This document shows, in pieces, positions 40,906 through 55,510 of a stretch of DNA of 63,486 nt. The number at the start of each line of letters is the position of its first letter. Position 1 is the first letter of the stretch. This stretch comes from Candidatus Woesebacteria bacterium GW2011_GWA1_44_23 (GTDB lineage Bacteria > Patescibacteriota > Microgenomatia > UBA8517), in the NCBI GenBank assembly GCA_001001045.1, contig LCIL01000004.1, positions 1-63,486 on the forward strand, in the 5' to 3' direction. The translations under genes and the position numbers were made by a program. Under the pieces are notes generated by a model. It did not search any database. It saw nothing but the letters and a program-made list of their open reading frames with translations, and had not been told where the DNA came from.

Positions 40906-41472
40906 TTATTGTGAAGGCCTGAGGGTTTCGGTGTAATCGGAAGCGTATTGAGTCTTAAAATCTTCTATTGTGGTTGGCGGAAAATACCAGATCTCAAAGA
41001 CTATTCCTGAATACTGGTTACCCACATAGGCGACCCCTTTGTTGGGATAAACATACAAATTAAAACTACTTGTTGAGAGGGGGCCATATAAAACATATTC
41101 ATAGCTGCCGTATTTCTCATTAATATTGGTAATACTTATTTTGTCGGACTCTGTTACTTGCTGTTTTACAAAATAAAGAACCCCAGACCGAAGATTAAAT
41201 TCGTTATTAAAATTAGGGTTACTTGACTCATATTCAAGTAAAGTGACGGCATCGTTTTGTGTTTCCTTGACCGGTGTACCCAAAGTTTTTTGGACGTCAT
41301 CTATCGTGCTGACACCCGGGGTAAGGTCGTTGTATGACGCTCCAGTTTTGGGAATTGAAGAGGTTTTTTTTTGGAGATTTCCCTTTGGCAAGGAAACAAG
41401 AATGATGTAACCGATGGAAATTACCGAAATTAAAAACAAAGGTATCAAGATTTTTTTATATTTTGTTTTCAT
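40906..41472 (-). CDS. Membrane-anchored extracellular hypothetical protein (SmpA/BLIP-like)
   Basis: N-terminal TM; LTPGVSTIDDVQKTLGTP, ITNINEKYG and YVYPNKGVAY duplicated alpha/beta units. Confidence 0.6.
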   Translation of the reverse strand: MKTKYKKILIPLFLISVISIGYIILVSLPKGNLQKKTSSIPKTGASYNDLTPGVSTIDDVQKTLGTPVKETQNDAVTLLEYESSNPNFNNEFNLRSGVLYFVKQQVTESDKISITNINEKYGSYEYVLYGPLSTSSFNLYVYPNKGVAYVGNQYSGIVFEIWYFPPTTIEDFKTQYASDYTETLRPSQ

Positions 41473-41486
41473 AGATTTATTTTACA

Positions 41487-44243
41487 TTAATTGAAAACAT
41501 ATCTCATTAAAAATTGGTAGTGGATAGGCCATTGCCGTTGAACACTCCCACACCTTGGTTCAATTATGTGTAGAGCAATTGATTCGGGTAATGACTCACC
41601 CTCATTCCAGCTTTGCGTGGCGCCGTAGAAGCAATAAGGAGCCTCGGTTTTTATACCCGGGAATCTCCTGTAGGCATCGAAGACATAGCCCGTCTTTGAG
41701 CCTCCGGCTAAGGCGTGTCCCAGTTCATGGGAAAGTATATAAAGAGCGTCGGCTTGGTTTGTAACACCTATGGGGAAGAAATCTATATATGTTCCATGAT
41801 AATAACCCCAAAAGCCATCCAGGCCGCTGGGATTGTACTTTAGGGGTAGAGACGTGTACGACATACAAACCTTGGAAACATAGCTGCTGTATTTCGAAAC
41901 CAGTACGCTTCTGGCGTAAACTATGTTCGCATAATATTGAGACGGCCACTCTTTTTCGTTGACTTCGAGGCATGCCGTAGGCGGGGTTCCAATTGAGACC
42001 GAAGCCGAACCCGACACTTCCTGTTTTGCAGCATCCTGTGTATCGGCAACAACAGTAAAAGTATCCAAGATGATCGAATCTTTGTACTCACTTCCGGAAT
42101 ATCTTTCACTGTAGGTAAAGGTGTAAGGACTGCTTGGGGATATTGAAGCCGGTACGTCCGTTGGAACCTGTGAAGGACATTTATTTGACGGCCCCGACGT
42201 TAGTATTTGGCAATCGTTACTGAAGGTAATATTTGTCAGTACGCTCTTTTTTGCCGTCACAGTAACGGTGTAGGTAATCAGTTGAGGTAAATCGGTGTTC
42301 TTGAAGGGCCCCGCGGGGCTGGCCACCTTGTCAACCTGAATATAGGGGTTTGAGCCCAAGCTGGTTAGAGATGTAGGAGGAACAATGTAAGCGCCTGAAT
42401 TGATTATAAAAAGAATAAAGGCAACAACTACGGGAAAAACCAGTAGGGTTACTATGATCGGCATTCCTATTGATGCCAAGAAGGCTCCGCCCAAAGCTCC
42501 AAGGAAAGCCGCAATTCCACTCCCAATACTTGATAAAGATGCCCCCAGAGTCGAAAGCCCGCCGTTCATAATTCCGCCGACAATTCCAACCCCTCCGCCA
42601 ACCGATAGTGCTATGCCAATGACGGAGTTGGGAAAAACGAGTAAGCCCGCGGCCAGCATTCCGCCTGATATTGCGATGAGATTCTCTTTGATTTTGGGTA
42701 AAAGGCCTTTGGCTGCTTTGATAATCTTGTTAATGATCTTTGCGCCAACCATTTCTACTAAAAACGCCCCCACGGTTCCTATTACAGGGGCAAGGGGGCC
42801 TGTCCAAGCAAAAGTCGCCGTTATTGCTGCGGCCAGTCCTGTTCCGGTTGCAGCCCCGATTGCCACCTTTGTTCCGGCTGGTGCAACCACTTTTTCAACA
42901 ACTTCTACCCCAATTTTTTCTGCAGCTTTCTTAACACCAAAATTTATTCCAGTTTTTTCTCCCAACCGGCCCAATATCGGTCCGAAACCAGAACTGATAG
43001 CTATCCTTCCAAAAAGTGAGCCTTCGGCAGCAACCCAAGGTGCAGTCTCGACAATTGCAAGTGAAGACAAACCGGACTGCGTGATTTCTGAACTGTAGGT
43101 TATAGGCAATGAACCGTCCGTTGGTAGCTTTGAAACATGGTCTTTGAGTCGTTCTCCTATACCCGACAAAATATGAGACCTTATTTCTCGTTCGCCAAAA
43201 TTTCCTACGTTCTCAAGTAGTAAGCCTTGTTGGTTTAGAGTTTCGAGATGGGGCAAAATTATTTGCTGGTTAAGATCAAAGTCTCTAAAGCCGCCCCCTG
43301 GTGTTTCAGAGATCTGGACGGTTACGTTTTCTGGGATTGTAATACCATCAATCTTGGAGACGTCGATAAAATGTTCGACTAATTCAGATTGCGCAGTCTT
43401 TTGCTCGACAAATAACCCAATTATATTTTTGAAATCCGTTTGCTTCTCGATATCCGGAACAAGTTTATTTAAAATTTTCGGACTTGCGATAATCTTTTTA
43501 GCTAAAGCAATTTGAATAACAGGAGAATTGTCCGTTAATACGTCATAGGTGGTTACAGCAGCCTGTTCACTCGCAATTTGAAGTTCATCCGTTGTTACAC
43601 CTTTGATATTGGAATTACTTCTAAACCGTTTTGCCGCGTCTTCTATAAACTTCTTGGGATCAGCTTTGGCCTGTTGCTTCAGGCTCTCAACTGCCTGAGT
43701 TGCCGCTACCGGATTTTTTTCAACTTTAAAGTAAACCTTTTGGTTTACAAGCGCCCCCCTTATTGCATCGGCTTTTCTTACCTCGTCCAAAACGGCCACT
43801 CTTTGTTCTTTGACTGCATCTTCCTGCGTTTTTTTCCGTAAGGATTCCTTTGCCAAGTCTTCTTTTGTTTCTACCACCTTCTCAACATTCTTTTTGGCTT
43901 CCCGCGCTGCCGCCTGCTGAGCCTCGGCCCTTTTTTTGCCCTCTTCCTCAAGCGTTTCAAGCTGTTCCTTTGTGGGCCTATTTGCCTTGGGTGCTTCTTC
44001 TGCTTCTACTAATTTCTCGACAGCCAACTGGGCCTTTTTAATATTTTCAAAGTCCTTCTCCGATTTTATCTGGACACCTGTGAGTCTATATACAAAACCC
44101 ATAAATTCTTTCCGGTTATCCCAATTGAATTCACCTGAAGTGTAGGGTTTGTCGGTTGAATAGATGGTGTCTTCGGGGAAGAAGTGGGAAAATGCTTCTC
44201 TGATATATTTTACGTTTTCTTTTGAGAGGCTTATGTTTGCCAT
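41487..44243 (-). CDS. Large T4SS-associated membrane protein: coiled coil, Gly/Ala-rich TM bundle, Ig-like domain, HExxH domain
   Basis: Charged helical N-terminus; hydrophobic GA-rich segment; VDKVASP...ITYTVTVTA; YILSHELGHAL (41715-29) with downstream ESLPE. Confidence 0.75.
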   Translation of the reverse strand: MANISLSKENVKYIREAFSHFFPEDTIYSTDKPYTSGEFNWDNRKEFMGFVYRLTGVQIKSEKDFENIKKAQLAVEKLVEAEEAPKANRPTKEQLETLEEEGKKRAEAQQAAAREAKKNVEKVVETKEDLAKESLRKKTQEDAVKEQRVAVLDEVRKADAIRGALVNQKVYFKVEKNPVAATQAVESLKQQAKADPKKFIEDAAKRFRSNSNIKGVTTDELQIASEQAAVTTYDVLTDNSPVIQIALAKKIIASPKILNKLVPDIEKQTDFKNIIGLFVEQKTAQSELVEHFIDVSKIDGITIPENVTVQISETPGGGFRDFDLNQQIILPHLETLNQQGLLLENVGNFGEREIRSHILSGIGERLKDHVSKLPTDGSLPITYSSEITQSGLSSLAIVETAPWVAAEGSLFGRIAISSGFGPILGRLGEKTGINFGVKKAAEKIGVEVVEKVVAPAGTKVAIGAATGTGLAAAITATFAWTGPLAPVIGTVGAFLVEMVGAKIINKIIKAAKGLLPKIKENLIAISGGMLAAGLLVFPNSVIGIALSVGGGVGIVGGIMNGGLSTLGASLSSIGSGIAAFLGALGGAFLASIGMPIIVTLLVFPVVVAFILFIINSGAYIVPPTSLTSLGSNPYIQVDKVASPAGPFKNTDLPQLITYTVTVTAKKSVLTNITFSNDCQILTSGPSNKCPSQVPTDVPASISPSSPYTFTYSERYSGSEYKDSIILDTFTVVADTQDAAKQEVSGSASVSIGTPPTACLEVNEKEWPSQYYANIVYARSVLVSKYSSYVSKVCMSYTSLPLKYNPSGLDGFWGYYHGTYIDFFPIGVTNQADALYILSHELGHALAGGSKTGYVFDAYRRFPGIKTEAPYCFYGATQSWNEGESLPESIALHIIEPRCGSVQRQWPIHYQFLMRYVFN

Positions 44244-44245
44244 TT

Positions 44246-46114
44246 TTATTTAACTTCGTACGGATTCGTGTTTATTTTAATAACCTCCTGGGGTTTTGTG
44301 GTAACTATTCTATTCTCTTCCTCTGAGGCAACAACCCTGATTGGAGCATGATGAGGGCCTGCAAAAAATATTCCCTCTCCCACGTTTGCCGCAAGGAGCA
44401 GTTGTTTTTCTCCCTGGGAAAGGTAAAAAACTTCCCCTATTTTGTCTATTGCCGCAGGGCTTTGTTTAAGAAGGACCTGTATGGCGCTATTTGTAACAAT
44501 GGCTTTACCGATATCCTGGCTCAGGAAATCTTCAACATCCTGAGTAATTGTTGTGAGGCCTAAATAGTATTTCCTTGCCCTTTTAACAACGCTCCACAAA
44601 AATTGTGCCGTATCGGGGTACTTCATCATCTGCCAGGCCTCTTCGGCGATTAAGATGCGTTTCTTGAGGTCTTTTTTAACCCTTGTCCAAATAAAGTCGA
44701 GAATAATAAACATGGCGATCGGCCGAAGCGCGTCCTGCAAATCCTTAACCGAAAAAACCGTGAAGGGATTATTGATGTTGATGTTGGTCTGCTTGTCAAA
44801 AATTCCGACAAAAGATCCCCTTACAAACTTTTCAATTCTTGCAGCAAGGTCGAGAGCTTCGGGAGATTCCATCCCGATTAAAGTTTTATACAAATCCTCC
44901 ATAAGAGGGGGTTCGCGGCTTTGAGTGTCGGGGTCCATTGTTATTCCCTTGTTTCTATATGTCATGACAAAAGCTCGGTCAAGGAGAGCCTCCTGGGTTG
45001 GGGTAATTGCCCCCATAATTACTTTTAAAAGTGAATGTAAGGAAAGAATCTTTTGCCCCAGCTGGTTTTCGCCTTCTTCCCTGATTTGTGCCAGATCAAA
45101 GGGATTGATTTTAGCCGGAGCGTTGAAGGAGAAGGAAATGTACTCTCCTCCCACGGCGGTGGTTAAGGGTTTATATTCACTTTCGGGGTCAATGACAATT
45201 ACCTCCGTTCCTGTCATAAGCGACCTTAGGGCTTCAAGTTTTACAAAATACGACTTTCCGGCACCGGAGGTGGCAAATATTGTCATGTTTGCATTTTCAA
45301 GACTGAAGCGGTCAAAAATTATGAATGATTCATTCTGGGAATTAATGCCGTAAAGAACTCCGCGGTCGCTCGAAAGCTCCGTTGAGGTTAAAGGAAACGT
45401 TGTGGCGACTGAGGTTGTATCCATGTTTCTTGTGATATTAAGCCTATCCATTCCGAAAGGAGCGGTTGAAAGGAAACCCGACTCCTGGTCCAGGAGAGCG
45501 TGTTTGCTTACGATTAAGAGCGATCCGAGTTGGGCCTCCACCTGCTTGGTTATATGATTAAGCTCTTCAACCGAATTGGCAGGGATGGTTATGTAAAAAC
45601 TGAATTCGTAAAATCTTTCGATCCCCTTAACCAGCTGTTCCTGAAGTGTTTGCGCATCTTCAAGTTTAGCCTGAGTTGTAGGATCAACGATTTTGCCGCG
45701 TTCGATATCGGTGGACATTTCGGCTTCCATCTCCGCGATTTTGCGCCTCAGGTCGTCAAGAACCGTTTTTCCGTCAACAGGATAGACATAAAAGGAAATA
45801 TCAAGTGATGTGTCGATATTGACAACCGGTTCAAGCCAACCCGGGGCGACAAATCTGGGGTATCCGCCAACAAAAACCGTACGGAAATAAATATCGTTGA
45901 TTTTAATGTAATCAAAATCCTCTTCAATGGTTTGGGGAGCAATGGCGTCAAGCAAATTCATGCCCTGGGAAATGGCCAGATTTGGATCGGCGACCTTGGG
46001 TTTTACTTCAGGTGCCTGAACCTGGGAGCCGGCATCTGGAACAGCGGAATTTTCCGCGTGATTTACAACTATTGACTCACCTCCTGTATTATTGTTTGGG
46101 TTGTTCATGTTCAA
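44246..46114 (-). CDS. virB4: VirB4/TraE-like conjugation-family ATPase
   Basis: RNMDTTSVATTFP, FDRFSLENAN, ATSGAGKS, VIDPESEY, INPFD, IAEEAW, RARKYYLG...TQDVEDF. Confidence 0.9.
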   Translation of the reverse strand: MNMNNPNNNTGGESIVVNHAENSAVPDAGSQVQAPEVKPKVADPNLAISQGMNLLDAIAPQTIEEDFDYIKINDIYFRTVFVGGYPRFVAPGWLEPVVNIDTSLDISFYVYPVDGKTVLDDLRRKIAEMEAEMSTDIERGKIVDPTTQAKLEDAQTLQEQLVKGIERFYEFSFYITIPANSVEELNHITKQVEAQLGSLLIVSKHALLDQESGFLSTAPFGMDRLNITRNMDTTSVATTFPLTSTELSSDRGVLYGINSQNESFIIFDRFSLENANMTIFATSGAGKSYFVKLEALRSLMTGTEVIVIDPESEYKPLTTAVGGEYISFSFNAPAKINPFDLAQIREEGENQLGQKILSLHSLLKVIMGAITPTQEALLDRAFVMTYRNKGITMDPDTQSREPPLMEDLYKTLIGMESPEALDLAARIEKFVRGSFVGIFDKQTNININNPFTVFSVKDLQDALRPIAMFIILDFIWTRVKKDLKKRILIAEEAWQMMKYPDTAQFLWSVVKRARKYYLGLTTITQDVEDFLSQDIGKAIVTNSAIQVLLKQSPAAIDKIGEVFYLSQGEKQLLLAANVGEGIFFAGPHHAPIRVVASEEENRIVTTKPQEVIKINTNPYEVK

Positions 46115-46784
46115 GTGTTACCTCCGGTTCTTTTTTGACCGCCGGGTGCTCGGGATTATAAACGGAATGATAAAGGGCAATGAGGTCGGCAGTGCCGAGC
46201 TGCTTAAACTTAATTCCCAGCCGACCCGCCTGCCGGATTAGGTGGTCGCGCCTTGGGTAAAGAGTGATTTTTGCTTTTTTAATTACATATGATTTTGTAA
46301 AGGGGAGCGGCCCCTCCCGTTTTGCAAGTGCGGCGACGGACTTTCCGACTCCAAGTTCAAGGGGGGAGAGATAAAGCACAACAAAAAACCTTTTTCCGAG
46401 AACGTTCTTTTTCTTAACGGATTCCATAATAAAACTTTTGTAACCTTGCATTAGTTTGGCGAGAATGGGTTGAGTAAGCTTTTTTGCCTCTTCGTCCAGG
46501 AAACTTAAATAGGAAGACACATCCTTCCTTTGTGTAAGTACGACAATTTGGATGGAGAAGGTTAGGGAGTTAATCATTGCGGCATAGGCTGCGATGACGG
46601 CGGCCTGTTCCTTTTCGGACAAAAGACCGAAGTTTAAGGATGTGGATTCCATCACCAGAGCCGCGCCTCCATCCTTGTAAATGACAACATCATTTGTAAT
46701 ATCGGCGATCGGGAGATGTTCCTGGGTGGTAGATGTCAGGGGTTTGTCGGGAGTGCTTAGGAATGGAATTTTTGGCAGTATCAT
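46089..46784 (-). CDS. VirB4-associated protein (resembles the N-terminal region of TraC/VirB4)
   Basis: TQEHLPIADI...LVMESTSLNFGLLSEKEQ...NSLTFSIQI; lies between prgI and virB4. Confidence 0.65.
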   Translation of the reverse strand: MILPKIPFLSTPDKPLTSTTQEHLPIADITNDVVIYKDGGAALVMESTSLNFGLLSEKEQAAVIAAYAAMINSLTFSIQIVVLTQRKDVSSYLSFLDEEAKKLTQPILAKLMQGYKSFIMESVKKKNVLGKRFFVVLYLSPLELGVGKSVAALAKREGPLPFTKSYVIKKAKITLYPRRDHLIRQAGRLGIKFKQLGTADLIALYHSVYNPEHPAVKKEPEVTLEHEQPKQ

Positions 46785-46788
46785 AAGG

Positions 46789-47859
46789 TTATGTTTGAGC
46801 TATCGGCTGCGTATAAAATTGATTCGTCGGTCGGGGGACGGTGCCGGATTCGACATTGGGAAATCCGGGTTCCAGTTTTCGGCCTTCTACCAAAATCGGC
46901 GGAATTAATGTTCCGGCCGCCTCAAAACTGACAGGGGAGAATTGGTAACCGTCTTTTTCGGTTGCAATTTCGTATCTACCGCTATCCAATGGCGTGACGA
47001 TAATAAAGTGCCCGACCTTGTTGCTTCTAAGTGCGCGGACGGGACGTCCCGCCTCGTCCCTTATTTCCATAATAGCCCCTTCAATTATTCTTCTTCCTTC
47101 ATCAACCACTTGTCCAACCACGACGTTGGGAGTTGTCGGGGGATTAGGCGGAGCGGCATCAACGGAAAAAATAGCCTGTTTTGTTGAAACAATTTCCTCT
47201 CCCGCGATAATCGGGGCGACACTTTGAGTAGTCGCCTTGACGATCGGGGCTTCTTTTGCTTTCTCTTCAACTACCAGGTGTGTCATGCCCTGCTGCACGA
47301 TTTTAACGGGAGCGGCAAAGGGAACATCCATTTCTTTTTTCTTCTCTACGGGTGGAGGGCTAACGGCGGCGGGAGCCGGCACCTGGCCTTTCAAACCCGC
47401 AAAAATACCACTGAGGGTTGTCATAAAGCCCTGCTCTGCCGTCTCAAGCTTAGCCAGGGGGCTACTTTGTCTGGTGGTTGTAAGATAAGCCTTAAGAGCG
47501 GCTTCCTGTTCCGATGAGGTAGACGCGGGGGGTGCTCCGACTACCTCGTCTTGAAAAACTTTGGCGGTGGAGGCGGTTTTTTTCCAGAAAAACTCGGTGG
47601 GACTATATATTGCCCTGAAAAAAGCGAAAATCCATCTCTCCAAAGGACGCTCCTCCAGCGGCACAAAAGCCATGCCTGCGCCCAGAAGAGCAGAAACGAC
47701 CACAAACGGCCATTTAATAATCCCTATAAGAGGGGAGGAGTAGAAAATAAGGGCAACCAAAAGACCCCCCGCCAGTTCAAAAAACTGTTTAAGGGTCATG
47801 TCGCCAACAAGTTTAAATTGGTACGAGGAAACGTTTTGAGGTATAGGATGTTGTTCCAT
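46789..47859 (-). CDS. prgI: PrgI (VirB3-like) protein with C-terminal beta-sandwich
   Basis: HPIPQNVSSYQFKLVGDMTLKQF, two TM, ERPLERW; C-terminal VVGQVVD...EGAIMEIRD...SNKVGHF...EKDGYQF. Confidence 0.82.
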   Translation of the reverse strand: MEQHPIPQNVSSYQFKLVGDMTLKQFFELAGGLLVALIFYSSPLIGIIKWPFVVVSALLGAGMAFVPLEERPLERWIFAFFRAIYSPTEFFWKKTASTAKVFQDEVVGAPPASTSSEQEAALKAYLTTTRQSSPLAKLETAEQGFMTTLSGIFAGLKGQVPAPAAVSPPPVEKKKEMDVPFAAPVKIVQQGMTHLVVEEKAKEAPIVKATTQSVAPIIAGEEIVSTKQAIFSVDAAPPNPPTTPNVVVGQVVDEGRRIIEGAIMEIRDEAGRPVRALRSNKVGHFIIVTPLDSGRYEIATEKDGYQFSPVSFEAAGTLIPPILVEGRKLEPGFPNVESGTVPRPTNQFYTQPIAQT

Positions 47860-48050: not shown

Positions 48051-48770
48051 TTAAGTTAAACCTCCGTCACTTCTGTCCATTGGAGTTCTGACTGATACTG
48101 GCGCAGGGTATCTGCACTGAGGGTCGATACCTCTTATTTCTGCATAAACAAAGTGAGGAATTTTTAGGTCGCCAAGGTCTAGCTTTTGTTCCGCGTATCT
48201 CTTCTGGCGCGGGCGGTAAGACTCTAATGTTTCTACATAATCATCCAATGTTTTCTTAATATCATCATTTGTGATGACTTCCTTATAGGTAGACATCTTT
48301 CTATCTGAAAGGAAAAACTTAAGCCCTCCTTCAGGTTTGAATATAAGTCCGAAGTTCAAGCCATCAATAATATTTGTCTTGTAAACGAGCACAAACCCGA
48401 TTGAGCTTTCGATTGATGGATCATGTAATTGTAGCTTAATTATCTCCTTCATTTGGCAATGGGCAACAACGGAAAAAGGTTGCCCAGACGAGGATTCGTG
48501 GTAGCTGGAAAACTGCCCCTCTCCCTTTCCTGGCCACAAGAAATATAACTTCTTATCCACAGTAGGAGGCTCTAACCCATCGTTAACAGGAGAAATTTTT
48601 CCAGATAATTTTTGAGAAAATGAACCGAATGTCTCCAAGAGATCGGCGGGTACACGATCTTCAAAAAACTTCAGTTCTAAGGGCATAATTTTCGCTTTGT
48701 AGTCTCGATCTATTCTCGTTGCCTCGTCAGCAAGTTCATATGCACTTTTCACTGCCGCTTCCTTTTCCAT
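48051..48770 (-). CDS. Orphan cytoplasmic hypothetical protein
   Basis: 239 aa from ATG 48770; TTGACT-17-TACACT promoter upstream; no recognised motif. Confidence 0.65.
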   Translation of the reverse strand: MEKEAAVKSAYELADEATRIDRDYKAKIMPLELKFFEDRVPADLLETFGSFSQKLSGKISPVNDGLEPPTVDKKLYFLWPGKGEGQFSSYHESSSGQPFSVVAHCQMKEIIKLQLHDPSIESSIGFVLVYKTNIIDGLNFGLIFKPEGGLKFFLSDRKMSTYKEVITNDDIKKTLDDYVETLESYRPRQKRYAEQKLDLGDLKIPHFVYAEIRGIDPQCRYPAPVSVRTPMDRSDGGLT

Positions 48771-48876
48771 CTTGCCCGCGAGTGTATACCCGCTTAGGCA
48801 CAAAGTCAAGTTATGGGACACTCTTAACACTTGCCACGACCTTTCAAATTTTGCCTTTCTTGTATATAATTTGCCT

Positions 48877-51147
48877 ATGCCCGACAATATGTCACCCGAA
48901 AATCCAAATTTTCAAATAGGGGGTGTTACCAGGTTAGTTGCAAACGAGATTTCAGGGCAGGTAGCCAGCGGCTTCTTTCAGCCTGAATCAAAAACTAATA
49001 CCCCCGACATACGGATGCAACTAACGGGTGAAGAAGAGGACGAGAATGCTAAAAAGGACAAAGACGAACAGGAATATAGAAAAAGGCACCAATACCGTGA
49101 GGGACAGACACAGCTTGAAATAATATCCTCGAGTACAGAAAGACACCAGTTGATTGATGCGGAAAGGACTTTCATGAACGGTTTTGAAGACATGTCCCTT
49201 CATCCTGACGGTTCCGTCAGTGAATATAGACTTGAAGACGCAATTGCGGTTGTCGGCAACAGAAAGGCGGACATGTCTTACTCAAAACAGGATCTTCTGG
49301 ATCTTGGTTATCTAAAACAGTTACAAAATCCTCAAACAGGAAAGGTTGAAGAAAGGTTAACGTTTCCCGGTTTTGGATATACCATGAGGATTGAGAACAT
49401 TGAACAACATAAGAAAATATTAACCCCAGACGGCACCGTTCATCATATAGAAATTGAAGAAATGCCAATACAGGTCTATGTTCCAGGAACTGATGAGCAG
49501 AGGGAAGCGCTTCGCAACGATCTTTATCAAGTGCAGTCGGAAATGACAGCCCGAGAAGACTTGGTTAAAAAATTACGTTGGGTTTGGAACCAAACCGAAA
49601 ATCTTGAAGGTCTGGTCCAGTTTTATTTTATGGGTAGTTTGACTCAGGAATCGATGAACAGCCTCTGTAATGCTGAAGGTAGAACCATTCCGAGCGAACA
49701 AAACAATGGTGAAAGAATTGGAGCTCTGACCAGAACAGAAGGCGGAGCTGAATACAGAAAGGGCCATGAATTTGGGGACGCAACAAGTGTAGCACTTCAG
49801 TGTTTTGAGATTGCAGCCCTTTCCGAAAAACCGGCAGAGCTGGAAATCTTGCTTAAAAGACCTGGGATAAAATTCTTGTTTAAAGTGTCCGACCAAGAGG
49901 TTGACGATCTCTTTCTTGAGCCGGGTCAGAGAGGCGGAAGGCAGTTAAACCCAACTTTGGTTAAATGGATAGGAGAGCCTTGGAATTGGGACAGAACCAT
50001 TAAAAGCCTAAAGGAGAATGTTAAGAATGAAAACAAAAAAGGACTAAGAGGCCTCCTTACCAAACACGGGAACACCTTAGTTGAATCCAGTTGGAATGAT
50101 GTGGAAGACATTTTCGAGCAAGTGGAGCGATTTTTGGGAGGCGGAAACGATAGGAAAGTTGTCAGAAGGAATTCACTAGCTCAAAAAGATGCCAGAGACG
50201 CTCGTTATATAGCTTGGGCTGAACTTAGGGTAACAGCTATGGCCTCAGATTTGGGAGGCCAGTTGTATCACTACCCCGCAGATAAGTATCTGGATCGTCC
50301 TGAAGGTAATTATGTTGCCCATGAAATGGGAGGCATGACCTCATGCGATAGGGTAAAGGTAATCTACCCCAATATCTTTAGAAATATTTATAGATACATA
50401 AAAACAGAAAGACGCTCATACGGCCCAGATGGTTCTATTGGAAAATATCCGGATAGATTTACTGTCCCTTATTTTAAAAGTTGGGTTGGTCAAACCGAGC
50501 GTGGTAAAAGAACATTCCAAGAGATGAGATGGGGTTATCGTGCGGGACAAGAAGTGGATCTATTAACCGGTAAATTGGTTAACCTACCAGAAGAAAAGGC
50601 CTACCGCTTGGGCGAGCTTCCCTGGAGGAGCCTTGGACCTAAAGCATATAATGCCGCGGCACTTGGACCCTTTATTGCAGGTAGAGAGAAAGTTGGGATT
50701 TTTCAGAATGTTATGAGAACCGATTTCCAAATCCATGAGCTGAAAGATAAAGCTTTTTTTGAAAAACTTGCCCAGTTCACAGGGATATGCTTTAATCTTC
50801 AGACAATTCGCGACGGGAAGCTCAGAGGTGTATATGATGGAGTGAAACCTGTGGCACCAGGGGAAAAATCACATGATGACAAAGTGGACGAAACCGTCAA
50901 ACCCGGTTTGGTCAGGAATTATAAAAAGAAGTTCTTTACTGCCTTTTGGGATGGAATAAGATCCCTTCCACAATATAGGGAATGGAGGGCAGAGCGGCCC
51001 GATGTGGTGGATAGCTTTAATGCTAAATATACGCTATGGCCTATAGAAAGAATTAAATACAGACTGGGACGCATAGGTGTGTTCACGCCTGAGGAAGCGA
51101 AGAATTTGCCATCAGAACCTCTAAATAATAAAGATACGAATTACTAG
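48877..51147 (+). CDS. Large orphan soluble protein, antisense to the T4SS cluster
   Basis: 756 aa from ATG 48877, TATAAT 6 nt upstream; hydrophilic, no TM, no recognised motif. Confidence 0.75.
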   Translation: MPDNMSPENPNFQIGGVTRLVANEISGQVASGFFQPESKTNTPDIRMQLTGEEEDENAKKDKDEQEYRKRHQYREGQTQLEIISSSTERHQLIDAERTFMNGFEDMSLHPDGSVSEYRLEDAIAVVGNRKADMSYSKQDLLDLGYLKQLQNPQTGKVEERLTFPGFGYTMRIENIEQHKKILTPDGTVHHIEIEEMPIQVYVPGTDEQREALRNDLYQVQSEMTAREDLVKKLRWVWNQTENLEGLVQFYFMGSLTQESMNSLCNAEGRTIPSEQNNGERIGALTRTEGGAEYRKGHEFGDATSVALQCFEIAALSEKPAELEILLKRPGIKFLFKVSDQEVDDLFLEPGQRGGRQLNPTLVKWIGEPWNWDRTIKSLKENVKNENKKGLRGLLTKHGNTLVESSWNDVEDIFEQVERFLGGGNDRKVVRRNSLAQKDARDARYIAWAELRVTAMASDLGGQLYHYPADKYLDRPEGNYVAHEMGGMTSCDRVKVIYPNIFRNIYRYIKTERRSYGPDGSIGKYPDRFTVPYFKSWVGQTERGKRTFQEMRWGYRAGQEVDLLTGKLVNLPEEKAYRLGELPWRSLGPKAYNAAALGPFIAGREKVGIFQNVMRTDFQIHELKDKAFFEKLAQFTGICFNLQTIRDGKLRGVYDGVKPVAPGEKSHDDKVDETVKPGLVRNYKKKFFTAFWDGIRSLPQYREWRAERPDVVDSFNAKYTLWPIERIKYRLGRIGVFTPEEAKNLPSEPLNNKDTNY

Positions 51148-51149
51148 CT

Positions 51150-52838
51150 CTACCTCCTTCGAACCAAACCCGATATGGTCTCTATCCCCTTTGCCCATCT
51201 TTCGGCTCCTGTATGACCTGTTAAAACCCCCGATTCTCTTGCGGATCTGGCAAGACCACCGGCAGTGCCCAGTGTAGCGCCAGCAGCTCCTGCGATTTCC
51301 CCAATTCCACTTCCGTAGGCAAACGGCTTGCCGGAGAGGAGGGATTGAATAATGTCGTTAGCTTTTGGAATCAATGTAAAAATGACGAAACTGACAATAA
51401 CCATCAAAAGGCCGACACCGGCATTTCCGCTGGCACCCAAAAGTGGCGGCCAGGCATTTATGTTTTCGCCTACCGCTTGACCCACAAGACCCAACAACGA
51501 TCCTGTCGCACCCCCTCCAAAAAGCCATTCGATAACGTTAGACTCTAATCCTATTCGTATGCCCATTGCCACAAAAATATATGAGAATAGTATCAGAGCC
51601 CCCGTGACTACGAACACCGCAAGATTTGAAACATAGCTTCTAACCCAGGACCCGAAGCCCAAACTCGGGACAATAGTGCCCAGGGTCAGTTGGATCGGGG
51701 CAAGAATTGTAAGGAGTAACACATTTGTAAACGCCCTAAGAAGCCCCCAGAGAATCCTAAATAACATCCAAAGGACAATAATATACATTATAATTGCAGC
51801 TATTATTGCCACAATCAAAAGTATTGCCCAAACTCCAGAAGCAATGGCGACACCGACGAAAATCGCAGCTAACATAGCAACAATCGCGGAGCCAATGGCA
51901 CCAACATTCAACATCAAAAGAAAAATTGAAGCTAGACAAAAAAGCATTAAGTAAAGTACCAACAGACCGAAGGCACCCATTTGTATGTCAAAACCGGCCG
52001 GTTGACCCAGGGTCAAAAGGTTGAACCAGACAGTTGCACTGCTGTTGCCATCACCCGAAGCATTAATAATCTGAGTTCCGATCAAACTTACCAATCCGAT
52101 AGCGACATACATGAGATCAATTAAGAATCCGGCTATGGCGTAGGAGAAGGTTACAAGAATAATGGAAATTGTTATTTTTGGTAGTGCTGATTGTACAGAT
52201 ACCACCGTTTGGGGAGAAAGCTTAACCCTAAACATAATCATGAAAGCAAAAACAATAGCGACGATGACAAACAGCCCAAACGAAACGTTTCTGAAGCCCA
52301 TCCACATTCCCTGAATAGGCTTAAGTGCGCTGAATCCGACGCCGACTGATTGTGCTTGAACAACGGTAACAACATTGAGTTTGTCAATTTTCTCTTTGAC
52401 ATAAGCTATTCCTGATATTGGACGGTCAGATGCGAATACCAAACTCCAGAAGTTCTGTTGTGGATTGGCCTTTGCGATCACCGGGGCAGGGGCTTGACCT
52501 TGGCCCTTTTTGGCGTCAAGCAAGTCTTTTAATTGATCCATACACACGGTGGCGTCTGCAACATTACTGACGAAACACTGTATTAAACCTGAATTTTCGG
52601 GACCAGTTACGGAATTAATTAAGAAACTAAATAGGCTATAGACAATCCACTGGACCTGCGCCGCGGCATAGCGTTCTCCAAAGATTTCGCCGGGGTTGCT
52701 TGGATCATAAACTTTTCCATACCACTGTTGGAAAGACTGGTTGTACCAAGTGGTGTCAGCCTTGGCAGTAGATAAATTTGGAGCAAAAGAGAAAAATACG
52801 GTTAATCCAAGTAGAAACGAAACGAGCAGCTTTTTCAT
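51150..52838 (-). CDS. VirB6/TrbL-like polytopic membrane protein
   Basis: Signal peptide (..TAKA-D); W..FRNVSFGLFVIVAIVFAFMIMFR, ALPKI, LVTFSYAIAGFLIDL, APIQL; many TM. Confidence 0.65.
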   Translation of the reverse strand: MKKLLVSFLLGLTVFFSFAPNLSTAKADTTWYNQSFQQWYGKVYDPSNPGEIFGERYAAAQVQWIVYSLFSFLINSVTGPENSGLIQCFVSNVADATVCMDQLKDLLDAKKGQGQAPAPVIAKANPQQNFWSLVFASDRPISGIAYVKEKIDKLNVVTVVQAQSVGVGFSALKPIQGMWMGFRNVSFGLFVIVAIVFAFMIMFRVKLSPQTVVSVQSALPKITISIILVTFSYAIAGFLIDLMYVAIGLVSLIGTQIINASGDGNSSATVWFNLLTLGQPAGFDIQMGAFGLLVLYLMLFCLASIFLLMLNVGAIGSAIVAMLAAIFVGVAIASGVWAILLIVAIIAAIIMYIIVLWMLFRILWGLLRAFTNVLLLTILAPIQLTLGTIVPSLGFGSWVRSYVSNLAVFVVTGALILFSYIFVAMGIRIGLESNVIEWLFGGGATGSLLGLVGQAVGENINAWPPLLGASGNAGVGLLMVIVSFVIFTLIPKANDIIQSLLSGKPFAYGSGIGEIAGAAGATLGTAGGLARSARESGVLTGHTGAERWAKGIETISGLVRRR

Positions 52839-52873: not shown

Positions 52874-55510
52874 CTAGTGACTGTGAGCCACGCCCCAAAC
52901 GCAGGAGTTATGGCTACTTCCACCTGAACTGACCTTCTCACACACATCTCCTCCCGGGCAGGCTGCACTCGCACCGCCTCCTGTTGCACAACTGCCCGTC
53001 AGGGTAGCGCATGTGTAGGTGGAATTATATGCAGTTCCAAATTCCCAAACTCTGATTGCGGTTTCGTAATCACTTCCGTCCCATGAACAATTACTAGACC
53101 CACCAAACCCGGCGTTAAGGGGAATCCCATAACAGGTTCTTCCGGAAAAGGCGCCCGAGCCGTTTTGGCTTTGATTTAAATCCTTTGCAAGAGCAAATAC
53201 GGCATCCATCAGGTTACAAGGACTTGGCACCCTATCGGGGTCAACGACCTTGACGGCATCTTTTATTTTGTTCCAATAGGCTTCGAAAAACGGAACCACA
53301 CCGGTTGAAGGGAATGTATCGGGTGAACAATTTGGCATTGATTCGCAACCAGTACTCCATTTCTTAACGTTTTCCTCAGTCCATTCATATTTTGCACTGC
53401 TGCCACCATTGAACGCGCCCTCTCCAAACATAACCCCCAAAATAAGTCCAGGGGGAACATCATAATTTTGAGATGCCGCCTCAACAATGCTTACCAGGGT
53501 TGGGAGACTTGACAAATTTGCCGAGCCAACCATCCCGAGGGTGCCTAATTTGCAGTCACCGCTTGCCGGCGGAAGTGTTGGTAGCGACCCGTCTCCGCTA
53601 CAGGACGCCTCGCTTTCACCGAAGGAGATTGGTTCACCAAAGCCCTTGGGTCTAAGCGCAGTCTGGATCCCTTTTAGAAAATACTCCGAGATGCCACCAA
53701 TGTGAGGGAGTTTTAGATCCGTGTTTTGTTGGCTTATACCAAGACCTGTATATGTAATATTGGTTGATCCCGGGATATCCTTTATTTGTCCCATGCCTCC
53801 GGTGGTATTAGTTTTGGGGAAAATCTTTTTGAAGATTGACTGCGGTCCTGCAACCAGCTGAGACCAGATATCCTCAACTTTTGGCGTGCTTGAAGTGGTC
53901 GAAAGTGCGATATAAATATCTTTTGTACAGGTTTGGACAGGAGGCCTTGGTCCGGGTATGCTGCAACAATACCTTCCCACTGGGCAGGTTCCTGTGCCGG
54001 CTGTTCCGCCTTCGGCGTTACACAGATTTTGGTTGGGGAAACATGACCCCGAACATGTTGGGATTGAATCAAATTCACAAGAGAATTTAACCTCATAGTG
54101 CAGATTCCCTGTGAGCTGGGTAGCAAACAAATCATCACCCTTGTTGGATCTAACATCAACACTGGTACAGGCCGCGGGTGGGGCAACGTTGGTAGGAGAA
54201 CCAGTTTTATTTCCCTGTTCGCTGCTACTCACAAAAGTGTCCTGGAGGGCACTTGCCAGTTCGGTCGACTCCTGCATATGAGAAAAGAACAGCGTGGAGG
54301 GGGTTTGGTTTGAAAAGGTTATGTCACTGACCGCAACATCATCGTCAACGACTCCCGTGGCAGAAGACGCTTCATCGATTATGACCTGCCCTTTTAGATC
54401 CTCGGTTGAAGAAAGGGGAACATAGGAATAAAGGTCGGCATATTTATTAGGGACCAGAATATTGTCGAAGCAAACAACTTTGTTTATGACTGGTATTAGT
54501 ACGCAAGTATTACCCCTCCACTCATAATAGGCTTTTGTGTATAAATCCTCAGTTGCAAAAGGTTTGCCGTCTTCGTCACTCCAGGGAAGCGGCGGAATTC
54601 TTTTGTTCCAAGGCTCACCGATATATGTTTCAATGACATCTCTTGCTACACCTGGGAAAAATGGTGCCAGTTTGTCAACCATCATGCCTATCCATCTACT
54701 CCACCAACCAAGATCATCGCTCCATCCGTCATCTCCGCCCTGAGATTTCAACCTGAAAACCCTCCCTTTGGCTCTGGTATCATTTCCTTCATAGCACTCC
54801 CCAGGTGTAAAAGAACCCAAACCGGTAATATCACCAATAATTCCCAAGTTGCTATCACCGCAGACGGCAATTTGGTTGTGATTGTCGGAGTCGACGTTGC
54901 CAATTGTCTCAATTCTTTGTGCATCTAAAATTGCCCCTGGCAGCAGTTTATTTAGAGGCCCCGAAAGGTTAACCAGGTTGTAATCTGTCGTCTTTGAAGT
55001 TCCGTCCTCTGCGCGGTTTATGATACCGTTAAGGTACCAGCTGACATACCCGTTAACTTTATCGGCATCATCAAGAGGCGGATCAGAACCGTTTCTGGTC
55101 TGGGAATTTGGAACATTTTCTGTATTTCCCATGAAGGGTAAATTGGCGCCCGACAGGTCGATTGTTAATCTTTTATCTATTATTTCCTCGTATTTACAAG
55201 TAACTTTGGTTCCATTGTCAGTACAAGTTCCTCCTCCGGGATATTCTTCTTTAATCGTGTCGTGAAAGATCAATTCGTTCCCACAGAATTTTGCGGTTGA
55301 ATCCATTTCTGTTTGGCAAGGACTTGCCTGATATGGCCGTAGGGAATGAAATTCGGGGTCTCCGACATCACTGCAACTATTTATGTTGGGAGGAATTTGT
55401 GCATTTGCAGTTCCAATTCCCAATTTCAGATTCCTTATTTGTGGAAAAGCACCAACAAATAAAACTCCTGCTAAGAGGATCCTGAGCATTTTAGGAGTTG
55501 ACAGTCTCAT
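52874..55510 (-). CDS. Large secreted Cys-rich protein with lysozyme/lytic-transglycosylase-like C-terminal domain (VirB1-like)
   Basis: Signal peptide; IVEAASQNYDVPPGLILGVMFGEG resembles SLT motif I; NLMDAVFALAK; six-Cys module CSGSC...CNAEGG...CPVGRYCC. Confidence 0.6.
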   Translation of the reverse strand: MRLSTPKMLRILLAGVLFVGAFPQIRNLKLGIGTANAQIPPNINSCSDVGDPEFHSLRPYQASPCQTEMDSTAKFCGNELIFHDTIKEEYPGGGTCTDNGTKVTCKYEEIIDKRLTIDLSGANLPFMGNTENVPNSQTRNGSDPPLDDADKVNGYVSWYLNGIINRAEDGTSKTTDYNLVNLSGPLNKLLPGAILDAQRIETIGNVDSDNHNQIAVCGDSNLGIIGDITGLGSFTPGECYEGNDTRAKGRVFRLKSQGGDDGWSDDLGWWSRWIGMMVDKLAPFFPGVARDVIETYIGEPWNKRIPPLPWSDEDGKPFATEDLYTKAYYEWRGNTCVLIPVINKVVCFDNILVPNKYADLYSYVPLSSTEDLKGQVIIDEASSATGVVDDDVAVSDITFSNQTPSTLFFSHMQESTELASALQDTFVSSSEQGNKTGSPTNVAPPAACTSVDVRSNKGDDLFATQLTGNLHYEVKFSCEFDSIPTCSGSCFPNQNLCNAEGGTAGTGTCPVGRYCCSIPGPRPPVQTCTKDIYIALSTTSSTPKVEDIWSQLVAGPQSIFKKIFPKTNTTGGMGQIKDIPGSTNITYTGLGISQQNTDLKLPHIGGISEYFLKGIQTALRPKGFGEPISFGESEASCSGDGSLPTLPPASGDCKLGTLGMVGSANLSSLPTLVSIVEAASQNYDVPPGLILGVMFGEGAFNGGSSAKYEWTEENVKKWSTGCESMPNCSPDTFPSTGVVPFFEAYWNKIKDAVKVVDPDRVPSPCNLMDAVFALAKDLNQSQNGSGAFSGRTCYGIPLNAGFGGSSNCSWDGSDYETAIRVWEFGTAYNSTYTCATLTGSCATGGGASAACPGGDVCEKVSSGGSSHNSCVWGVAHSH

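Follow-up and report, generated by a model that had tools for sequence, protein, structure and literature searches.

A membrane protein of a Patescibacteria type IV secretion locus with an exchangeable zinc-peptidase-like tip and a co-varying partner gene

Introduction

What does the large protein encoded directly behind the VirB4 ATPase contribute to the Patescibacteria type IV secretion system (T4SS), a machine that is essential for growth on host bacteria (PMC10633639, PMC12102498)? The question is raised here by a window of 63,486 nucleotides (nt), the whole stretch of DNA analysed, from contig LCIL01000004.1 of Candidatus Woesebacteria bacterium GW2011_GWA1_44_23, which encodes in this position a protein of 918 amino acids (aa), hereafter called X. 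The initial annotation of the window, made from the sequence alone, had placed the open reading frame (ORF) at 41487-44243. These coordinates match exactly, and the strand, which had been left unstated, is minus.

41487..44243, minus strand: 918-aa ORF X, a predicted T4SS-associated membrane protein with a zinc-peptidase tip (ORF call; stop codon included)

X is probably a T4SS-docked membrane scaffold that presents an outer, envelope-cutting zinc peptidase and is encoded with a cognate partner. Published work already describes the T4SS, where it is located and that virB4 is followed by a peptidase gene. Our literature search found no paper on the family of the C-terminal HExxH domain (the "tip"), on a census of tips, on the decoupling of tip and scaffold, or on the strict linkage of tip and partner.

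The C-terminal domain of X resembles a zinc peptidase

41490..41987, minus strand: HExxH gluzincin domain, the tip, 166 aa (aa 753-918), with four conserved cysteines (model, Foldseek and profile)
41715..41729, minus strand: HELGH (H839, E840, H843), aa 839-843, conserved in 108/108 homologous domains
41583..41597, minus strand: ESLPE (E883, E887), aa 883-887, candidate third zinc ligand in the next long helix

A HELGH motif with a distal Glu had been proposed for the C-terminal part of X. Both elements were found, on separate helices, and both are conserved. Among 108 homologous domains that are 22-73% identical to the X tip (median 30%), H839, E840, H843 and E883 are kept in every sequence, E887 in 106 and Y873 in 105; C758, C793 and C871 are likewise present in 108/108 and C898 in 102/108. 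The loss of HELGH in homologs, which the annotation had envisaged as the case against its proposal, was not observed. Because the four residues H839, E840, H843 and E883 are retained in all 108 domains down to 22% identity, HELGH can be read as an active-site signature and not as a chance motif, and it would supply two zinc ligands and the catalytic base. The same conservation of HExxH, Glu and Tyr argues against a tip that is a catalytically silent binding or regulatory module, with another enzyme of the cluster doing the cutting. A precedent for such a module exists in the LytM and CHAP domains of PrgK from the Enterococcus faecalis plasmid pCF10 (PMC12857230), and we nevertheless consider this explanation very improbable for X.

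The tip was modelled alone with 18 aligned homologs, and the resulting model had a predicted local distance difference test score (pLDDT) of 95.1 and a predicted template modelling score (pTM) of 0.91. HELGH lies in the middle of a helix (residues 78-95 in domain numbering) and ESLPE in the next long helix (residues 129-142), with E883 and E887 following H843 by 40 and 44 residues. The structure prediction that had been suggested as a check accordingly places HExxH and ExxxE on two separate helices at a pLDDT of 95. This helix placement, together with the structural neighbours given below, supports a zinc-site geometry indirectly and agrees with a zincin whose conserved distal Glu stands on the second helix.

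The Pro-Pro endopeptidase PPEP-3 was the tip's best Foldseek match (TMq 0.61-0.67, probability 1.0, E about 0.01), followed by the catalytic domain of anthrax lethal factor (LF; TMq 0.49-0.57) and then by M1 aminopeptidases. The tip profile searched against the PDB matched PPEP-1/Zmp1 (E=0.004), with HExxH paired with HETAH and E887 with the Glu of the AE motif. No Pfam family was matched, the ATLF family (PF07737) not even at E<=5, and only sub-threshold matches to Reprolysin_5 and Peptidase_Mx1 were seen. Against viral structures Foldseek found only generic zincins (IrrE-like, "lethal factor"-annotated and minor capsid proteins) at E>=8.5e-4, and these matches say nothing about the substrate of the tip. 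As free-standing copies of the HExxH domain (91-290 aa) only two fragments were found, both from short contigs. From its sequence the HExxH head appears to be an unclassified zinc-peptidase family.

Like PPEP-1/Zmp1, PPEP-3 and anthrax LF (MEROPS family M34), the tip is predicted to be a small gluzincin, in which one helix bears HExxH and a second helix, about 40 residues on, the candidate Glu ligand. It is unlike them in the lack of a Pfam ATLF match, in the four conserved cysteines, in its fusion to a T4SS membrane protein, in its interchangeability with peptidoglycan hydrolases and in the spacing of its Tyr. The catalytic Tyr of M34 enzymes stands 7 residues before the Glu ligand (Y178/E185 in PPEP-1, Y728/E735 in LF). 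A Tyr with this spacing is absent from the X tip, where residue 880 is Asn and the conserved Y873 stands 14 residues before E887.

These relatives raise the alternative of a PPEP-like protease of proteins, whether of the cell's own adhesins, of the cluster's eight pilin-like proteins or of host S-layer or wall-anchored proteins, for which the partner would serve as substrate adaptor or inhibitor. PPEP-1, PPEP-3 and LF are the sole relatives detectable by sequence and fold, all three cut proteins, and the cluster encodes many secreted or surface proteins. The differing Tyr spacing and the missing ATLF match speak the other way, and every alternative tip found at this position (see below) is a peptidoglycan peptidase or amidase, which argues for one shared substrate class. 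On balance a protein-directed protease seems unlikely, though it is a serious rival to a wall peptidase.

Tips are exchanged together with the downstream gene

A profile search of 1.84 billion representatives retrieved 1204 proteins of the X family at E<=1e-3 and 573 at E<=1e-30. The family as detected here matched 14 of 301 genomes sampled across the phylum and is concentrated in the family and order of the source organism; homologs with a named source come from "Candidatus Microgenomates" and "Patescibacteria group" bacteria. A tblastn search of 72,556 plasmids gave zero matches, and so offers no sign of the family among them.

The C-terminus had been described as an exchangeable module, and a catalogue of ortholog C-termini bears this out, with positional orthologs carrying M23, CHAP or Amidase_2 domains. 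The tips of the 173 members in hand were distributed as follows.

HExxH tip: 108 of 173 members
M23 tip: 37-38 of 173 members
Divergent M23-like tip: 16 of 173 members
CHAP tip (two kinds): 8 of 173 members
Amidase_2 tip: 2 of 173 members

HExxH is the commonest head in this set (108/173). The profile that ranked the set drew mainly on HExxH members, and because 23 of its 35 sequences carry this tip, the top-150 list leans towards it.

The type of tip shows no correlation with the N-terminal phylogeny. A tree built from the N-terminal and membrane parts of 35 X sequences has 11 changes of tip type, whereas shuffled labels average 10.6 changes and reach at most 11, and well-supported sister pairs differ in tip. 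Two pairs of loci from sister genomes (L007 with L008, and L009 with L010) gave the same picture at closer range. VirB4 is 95% and 91% identical in the two pairs, the N-terminal part of X 72% and 62%, and the immunoglobulin (Ig)-like spacer that precedes the tip 48% and 45%; the tips are unrelated, as are the next genes, the partners, and DnaN is 75% identical. Such a stepwise fall in identity along the operon points to recombination breakpoints within X and to a faster evolution of all that lies outside the membrane. In the two congeneric genomes that were searched, X is present and the HExxH tip absent.

The divergent M23-like tips (P0006, P0018, P0019, P0026 and P0036; C-terminal ~190 aa) end in NTHLHxEF...PExYFC and reach Pfam M23 only at E=0.008. 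By eye they appear to have a Tyr in place of the first zinc-binding His of M23, and this class may be non-catalytic.

The gene that follows X changes with the tip.

40906..41472, minus strand: 188-aa partner gene with an N-terminal signal-anchor, 14 nt after X

The 188-aa protein has no Pfam or PDB match. Its homologs at four HExxH loci are 178-195 aa long and share 29-44% mutual identity (E 1e-19 to 1e-47). The M23 loci have a different downstream protein of 332-343 aa, Big_5-type proteins (150-211 aa) are found at the divergent-M23 and CHAP loci, and the Amidase_2 locus has a protein of 386 aa; the type of downstream gene co-varies with the type of tip at 10/10 loci. In a wider set of 61 related species genomes the HExxH domain was found in 14, and the partner profile matches exactly those 14 (E<=2e-25), always adjoining the tip. 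The 47 genomes without an HExxH tip gave no strong partner match and only two weak partial ones. Between related genomes, tip and partner are swapped as one cassette. In 13 of the 14 tip genomes the partner is encoded downstream on the same strand. From its N-terminal signal-anchor the body of the partner is expected outside the cell, where the tip is also predicted to be.

The fourteenth genome (G010:C4:20066-21209) was reported with the partner match on the strand opposite to the adjoining HExxH tip, which there lies in a 483-aa frame. This copy may be rearranged or decaying.

The scaffold consists of a helical domain, a hydrophobic block and an Ig-like spacer

42924..44243, minus strand: helical N-terminal domain, aa 1-440 (AlphaFold, pLDDT mostly 62-93, lower around aa 81-91)
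44004..44243, minus strand: conserved N-terminal segment, aa 1-80, no signal peptide (column identity 0.53-0.61)
43749-43970, minus strand: 74-residue helix, aa 92-165 (AlphaFold)
42387..42869, minus strand: Gly/Ala-rich hydrophobic block, aa 459-619, ~5-6 helices with a Lys-rich loop at aa 502-520 (composition)
42375..42410, minus strand: junction FIINSGAYIVPP, aa 612-623 (column identity 0.82)
41991..42341, minus strand: Ig-like beta-sandwich spacer, aa 635-751 (AlphaFold, Foldseek, DUF7507 at E=0.043)

The order of parts described earlier, a coiled coil, about 170 aa of Gly/Ala-rich hydrophobic helices and an Ig-like spacer, was recovered. The coiled coil corresponds to a K/E/A-rich region at aa 60-230 that contains the single predicted helix of aa 92-165. 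The spacer has seven predicted strands at aa 635-751, and Foldseek matched it to the beta-sandwiches of ApaG, CARDB and RhoGDI. The length given for the hydrophobic block was a fair estimate: aa 441-625 are 16% G, 15% A, 13% I, 11% V and 10% L, and two nearly chargeless stretches, aa 460-501 (E497 only) and aa 521-616 (no charge), flank the Lys-rich loop. AlphaFold pLDDT is below 45 in this block, and 24-43 over most of it.

Full-length X had no match in Pfam, NCBIfam or PHROGs, and phmmer against the PDB returned nothing beyond coiled-coil noise (syntaxin, E>1). With the full-length model, Foldseek gave weak matches for the Ig domain and for zincins and none for the N-terminal domain, which also has no match in Pfam, NCBIfam, PHROGs or the PDB.

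Conservation is uneven along the scaffold. The last hydrophobic helix and the junction form the most conserved part of the protein; FIINSGAYIVPP itself, at a column identity of 0.82, is conserved more strongly than any other segment in the family, and aa 1-80 come second (0.53-0.61). In the CHAP and Amidase_2 versions the tip starts immediately behind the FIINSGAYIVPP-type junction motif and the Ig-like spacer is absent; it is present in the HExxH and M23 versions, except for one 183-aa M23 tail.

The initial annotation had likened the Gly/Ala-rich helices to translocators or pore formers, an idea whose only positive evidence is composition; a membrane anchor or a contact surface within the machine would fit the conserved last helix and junction at least as well. 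A more elaborate form of the idea would make X an exported T4SS substrate or translocator, comparable to a phage tape-measure or ejection protein, whose Gly/Ala helices pore the host membrane while the tip digests the host wall. Tape-measure proteins have a coiled coil, then Gly-rich hydrophobic helices and then a C-terminal lytic domain, an order that the parts of X recall. Small-xxx-small motifs are enriched in the block ([GAS]xxxGxxx[GAS], 9 observed and 4.0 expected), although GxxxG itself is not, and the very low model confidence there is as expected of a conformationally labile segment. Moreover, the T4SS has neither a relaxase nor a coupling protein in its neighbourhood, and a relative cannot grow as an epibiont without it (PMC10633639, PMC12102498). 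Several observations oppose an exported X. No phage genes lie nearby and the whole-protein PHROG search gave none; a 96-residue uncharged stretch would be hard to export as part of a soluble substrate; and the conservation of the last transmembrane (TM) helix and junction, followed by that of the first 80 aa, fits fixed contacts with the machine. Export of X is in our view improbable.

Two further observations concern the scaffold. A same-genus genome (G001:C1:841863-847718, protein P0049) encodes a 2012-aa version of X whose N-terminal domain gives three matches to the family profile, so that the predicted cytoplasmic part is expanded in tandem. A 232-aa Pro/Ala-rich ORF at 42400-43098 on the plus strand lies antisense to the Gly/Ala-rich block, which it shadows, and is almost certainly no gene.

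X occupies the hydrolase slot of a T4SS operon

44246..46114, minus strand: VirB4-like ATPase of the CD1110 family, C-terminal piece, 622 aa (family match, 3.1e-110)
46089..46784, minus strand: TrsD/TraC-like protein, the N-terminal VirB4 piece, 231 aa (family match; same in relatives)
46789..47859, minus strand: PrgI/VirB3-like protein, 356 aa (family match)

The initial annotation placed X after virB4 and drew its comparison with Firmicute conjugation systems. The host is a Patescibacterium and not a Firmicute, and the placement is correct: only 2 nt separate the VirB4 stop codon from the ATG of X, which is translationally coupled to the two-piece VirB4. The gene order is PrgI, TrsD-like, VirB4, X and partner, then dnaN and dnaA on the other strand, and farther upstream in the cluster lies a run of small two-helix pilin-like genes (eight pilin-like proteins). 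In 9/9 loci from other genomes a small gene and dnaN follow directly downstream of X, and in these loci VirB4 immediately precedes X wherever the upstream gene has Pfam hits. The locus is a chromosomal, origin-proximal, relaxase-poor Patescibacteria T4SS (Wang et al. 2023, PMC10633639; Quinonero-Coronel et al. 2025, PMC12102498). X is single-copy in the host genome, which comprises 596 kb in 21 contigs and is ~94% complete.

The slot behind VirB4 is the one that the annotation had assigned to cell-wall hydrolases, and it is the slot of PrgK in pCF10, where the order is PrgI-VirB4-PrgK (PrgI-PrgJ-PrgK). PrgK, TraG of pIP501 and Orf14 of Tn916 are VirB1-like hydrolases of monoderm T4SSs, and in PrgK of pCF10 a Lys-rich N-domain is followed by one TM segment and then by hydrolase domains outside the cell (PMC12857230). 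Like PrgK, X stands directly after virB4 in a PrgI-VirB4 operon, is ~870-920 aa long, and combines a Lys-rich helical N-terminal part and a predicted membrane anchor with enzyme domains that are probably outside. In its architecture X would by analogy correspond to the wall hydrolases of PrgK/VirB1 type that monoderm T4SSs possess. It differs in its several-helix Gly/Ala-rich anchor (one TM segment in PrgK), its Ig-like spacer, its HExxH zincin in place of lysozyme/SLT, CHAP or LytM domains, and its cognate partner gene. Pfam and NCBIfam searches found no SLT/lysozyme, CHAP/NlpC-P60 or LytM/M23 domain in X, whereas M23, CHAP and Amidase_2 are the domains of its positional orthologs.

Another counterpart is SEML1_0007 of the saccharibacterium "Ca. 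Southlakia epibionticum" ML1, a 1113-aa protein encoded just after virB4 that has a C-terminal domain of Hedgehog/DD-peptidase fold and is essential for epibiotic growth (Wang 2023, PMC10633639; PMC12102498). X belongs to the same machine, has the same slot near dnaN and dnaA, and is likewise large (about 900-1100 aa) with a wall-peptidase-type C-terminus; its tip is predicted to have a zincin fold, unlike the Hedgehog/DD-peptidase (LAS) fold of the SEML1_0007 tip.

Proposed role of X

A docked scaffold with an outer peptidase would work as follows. The signal-less helical N-terminal domain (aa 1-440) would stay in the cytoplasm and dock on the platform of VirB4, TrsD and PrgI; a cytoplasmic place and docking on VirB4/TrsD are proposed in particular for aa 1-80. 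The Gly/Ala-rich helices would anchor X in the cell's own membrane, with the invariant last helix and FIINSGAYIVPP as a conserved contact or exit point, and the Ig-like spacer would hold a catalytically competent zinc endopeptidase outside the cell. Zinc would be bound by H839, H843 and E887 (or E883), with E840 as general base and Y873 assisting. The tip would cut peptide bonds of the envelope, either in peptidoglycan stems and cross-bridges or in wall-bound proteins, which would open the way for the T4SS and its pilus to pass a wall or engage it. The membrane-anchored partner of 188 aa might be an inhibitor or immunity protein, an activator or a targeting factor of the tip.

We infer the outside location of the tip from its conserved cysteines, the Ig-like spacer and its replacement by wall hydrolases. 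Envelope peptide bonds are its most likely target because all alternative tips are peptidoglycan peptidases or amidases. Several points weigh against this proposal. Judged by eye, the hydrophobic block of this signal-less protein could also consist of an even number of spans, and the tip would then lie inside the cell. The tip has no match among known peptidoglycan-hydrolase families, and its nearest structural relatives, the PPEPs and LF, cut proteins and not peptidoglycan; the similarity to M34 is itself weak (Foldseek E about 0.01, hidden Markov model E=0.004, no Pfam ATLF match). There is no sequence homology to PrgK, since hhalign of the X family profile (A1) with PrgK gave a probability of 0.2% (E=0.37) and the N-domains are also dissimilar. 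Finally, the LytM and CHAP domains of PrgK are regulatory and not catalytic (PMC12857230), so that a tip of hydrolase type is no proof of wall cutting.

The initial annotation had suggested a tethered protease acting on the S-layer or wall of a host. Its hydrolase slot, its zincin with a distal Glu and its exchangeable C-terminal module all held up; the wall that is cut may be the cell's own or a host's, and pore formation would be one reading of the Gly/Ala block beside that of an anchor. A bolder version remains tentative, and we would hold it with some doubt: the T4SS of these ultrasmall epibionts may carry a polymorphic outward "warhead", from a new PPEP/lethal-factor-like zincin family, aimed at the host envelope, with the co-swapped partner providing self-protection and with cassette exchange at FIINSGAYIVPP or at the Ig junction, within a genus too, tuning the host wall chemistry that can be breached. 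Very frequent cassette exchange and a co-varying partner are expected of a host-directed, self-protected enzyme, and they would fit an enzyme with its activator as well.

The arrangement is like that of CdiA-CT/CdiI, Rhs and type VI and type VII secretion system wall-hydrolase effector-immunity cassettes, which have a conserved N-terminal carrier, a conserved junction motif, a variable C-terminal enzyme and an adjacent gene that co-varies with it. Here, in contrast, the carrier is a subunit gene integral to a T4SS operon that is apparently essential, and the partner could equally be an activator or adaptor.

With a machine-tethered enzyme whose head and partner gene are replaced between close relatives, the X family offers a concrete handle on the role of the T4SS. 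If the head acts on the host wall, the host specificity of thousands of uncultured lineages would become readable from the type of head, and a zincin that cuts peptidoglycan, if confirmed as such, would be an unusual enzyme.

Other genes of the cluster

The two pieces of VirB4 (44246-46784, minus strand), the 231-aa TrsD/TraC-like protein and the 622-aa ATPase, are encoded by ORFs that overlap by 26 nt, and a two-piece VirB4 was also present in every fetched relative in which that region is complete and annotated. The PrgI/VirB3-like protein is, at 356 aa, far longer than classical VirB3 and has a weak C-terminal CarboxypepD_reg-like beta domain (E=1.8e-4).

Two more genes of the minus strand encode putative parts of the machine.

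51150-52838, minus strand: 562-aa polytopic protein with a signal peptide, candidate VirB6
52874-55510, minus strand: 878-aa secreted Cys-rich protein

Neither has a Pfam or NCBIfam match at E<=0.01, and standard profiles therefore miss these T4SS parts. In Tn916 the gene that follows virB4 is orf15, of the VirB6 channel type, and X was accordingly considered as a VirB6 channel protein. This assignment was rejected, as the cluster has the separate 562-aa polytopic protein with a signal peptide and X ends in hydrolase domains.

Two overlapping ORFs lie between the VirB6-like and PrgI-like genes, and family searches gave no match for either.

48772-51147, plus strand: 791-aa ORF
48051-48887, minus strand: 278-aa ORF

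The 791-aa ORF is the sole long plus-strand ORF from dnaN to the end of the pilin-like array.

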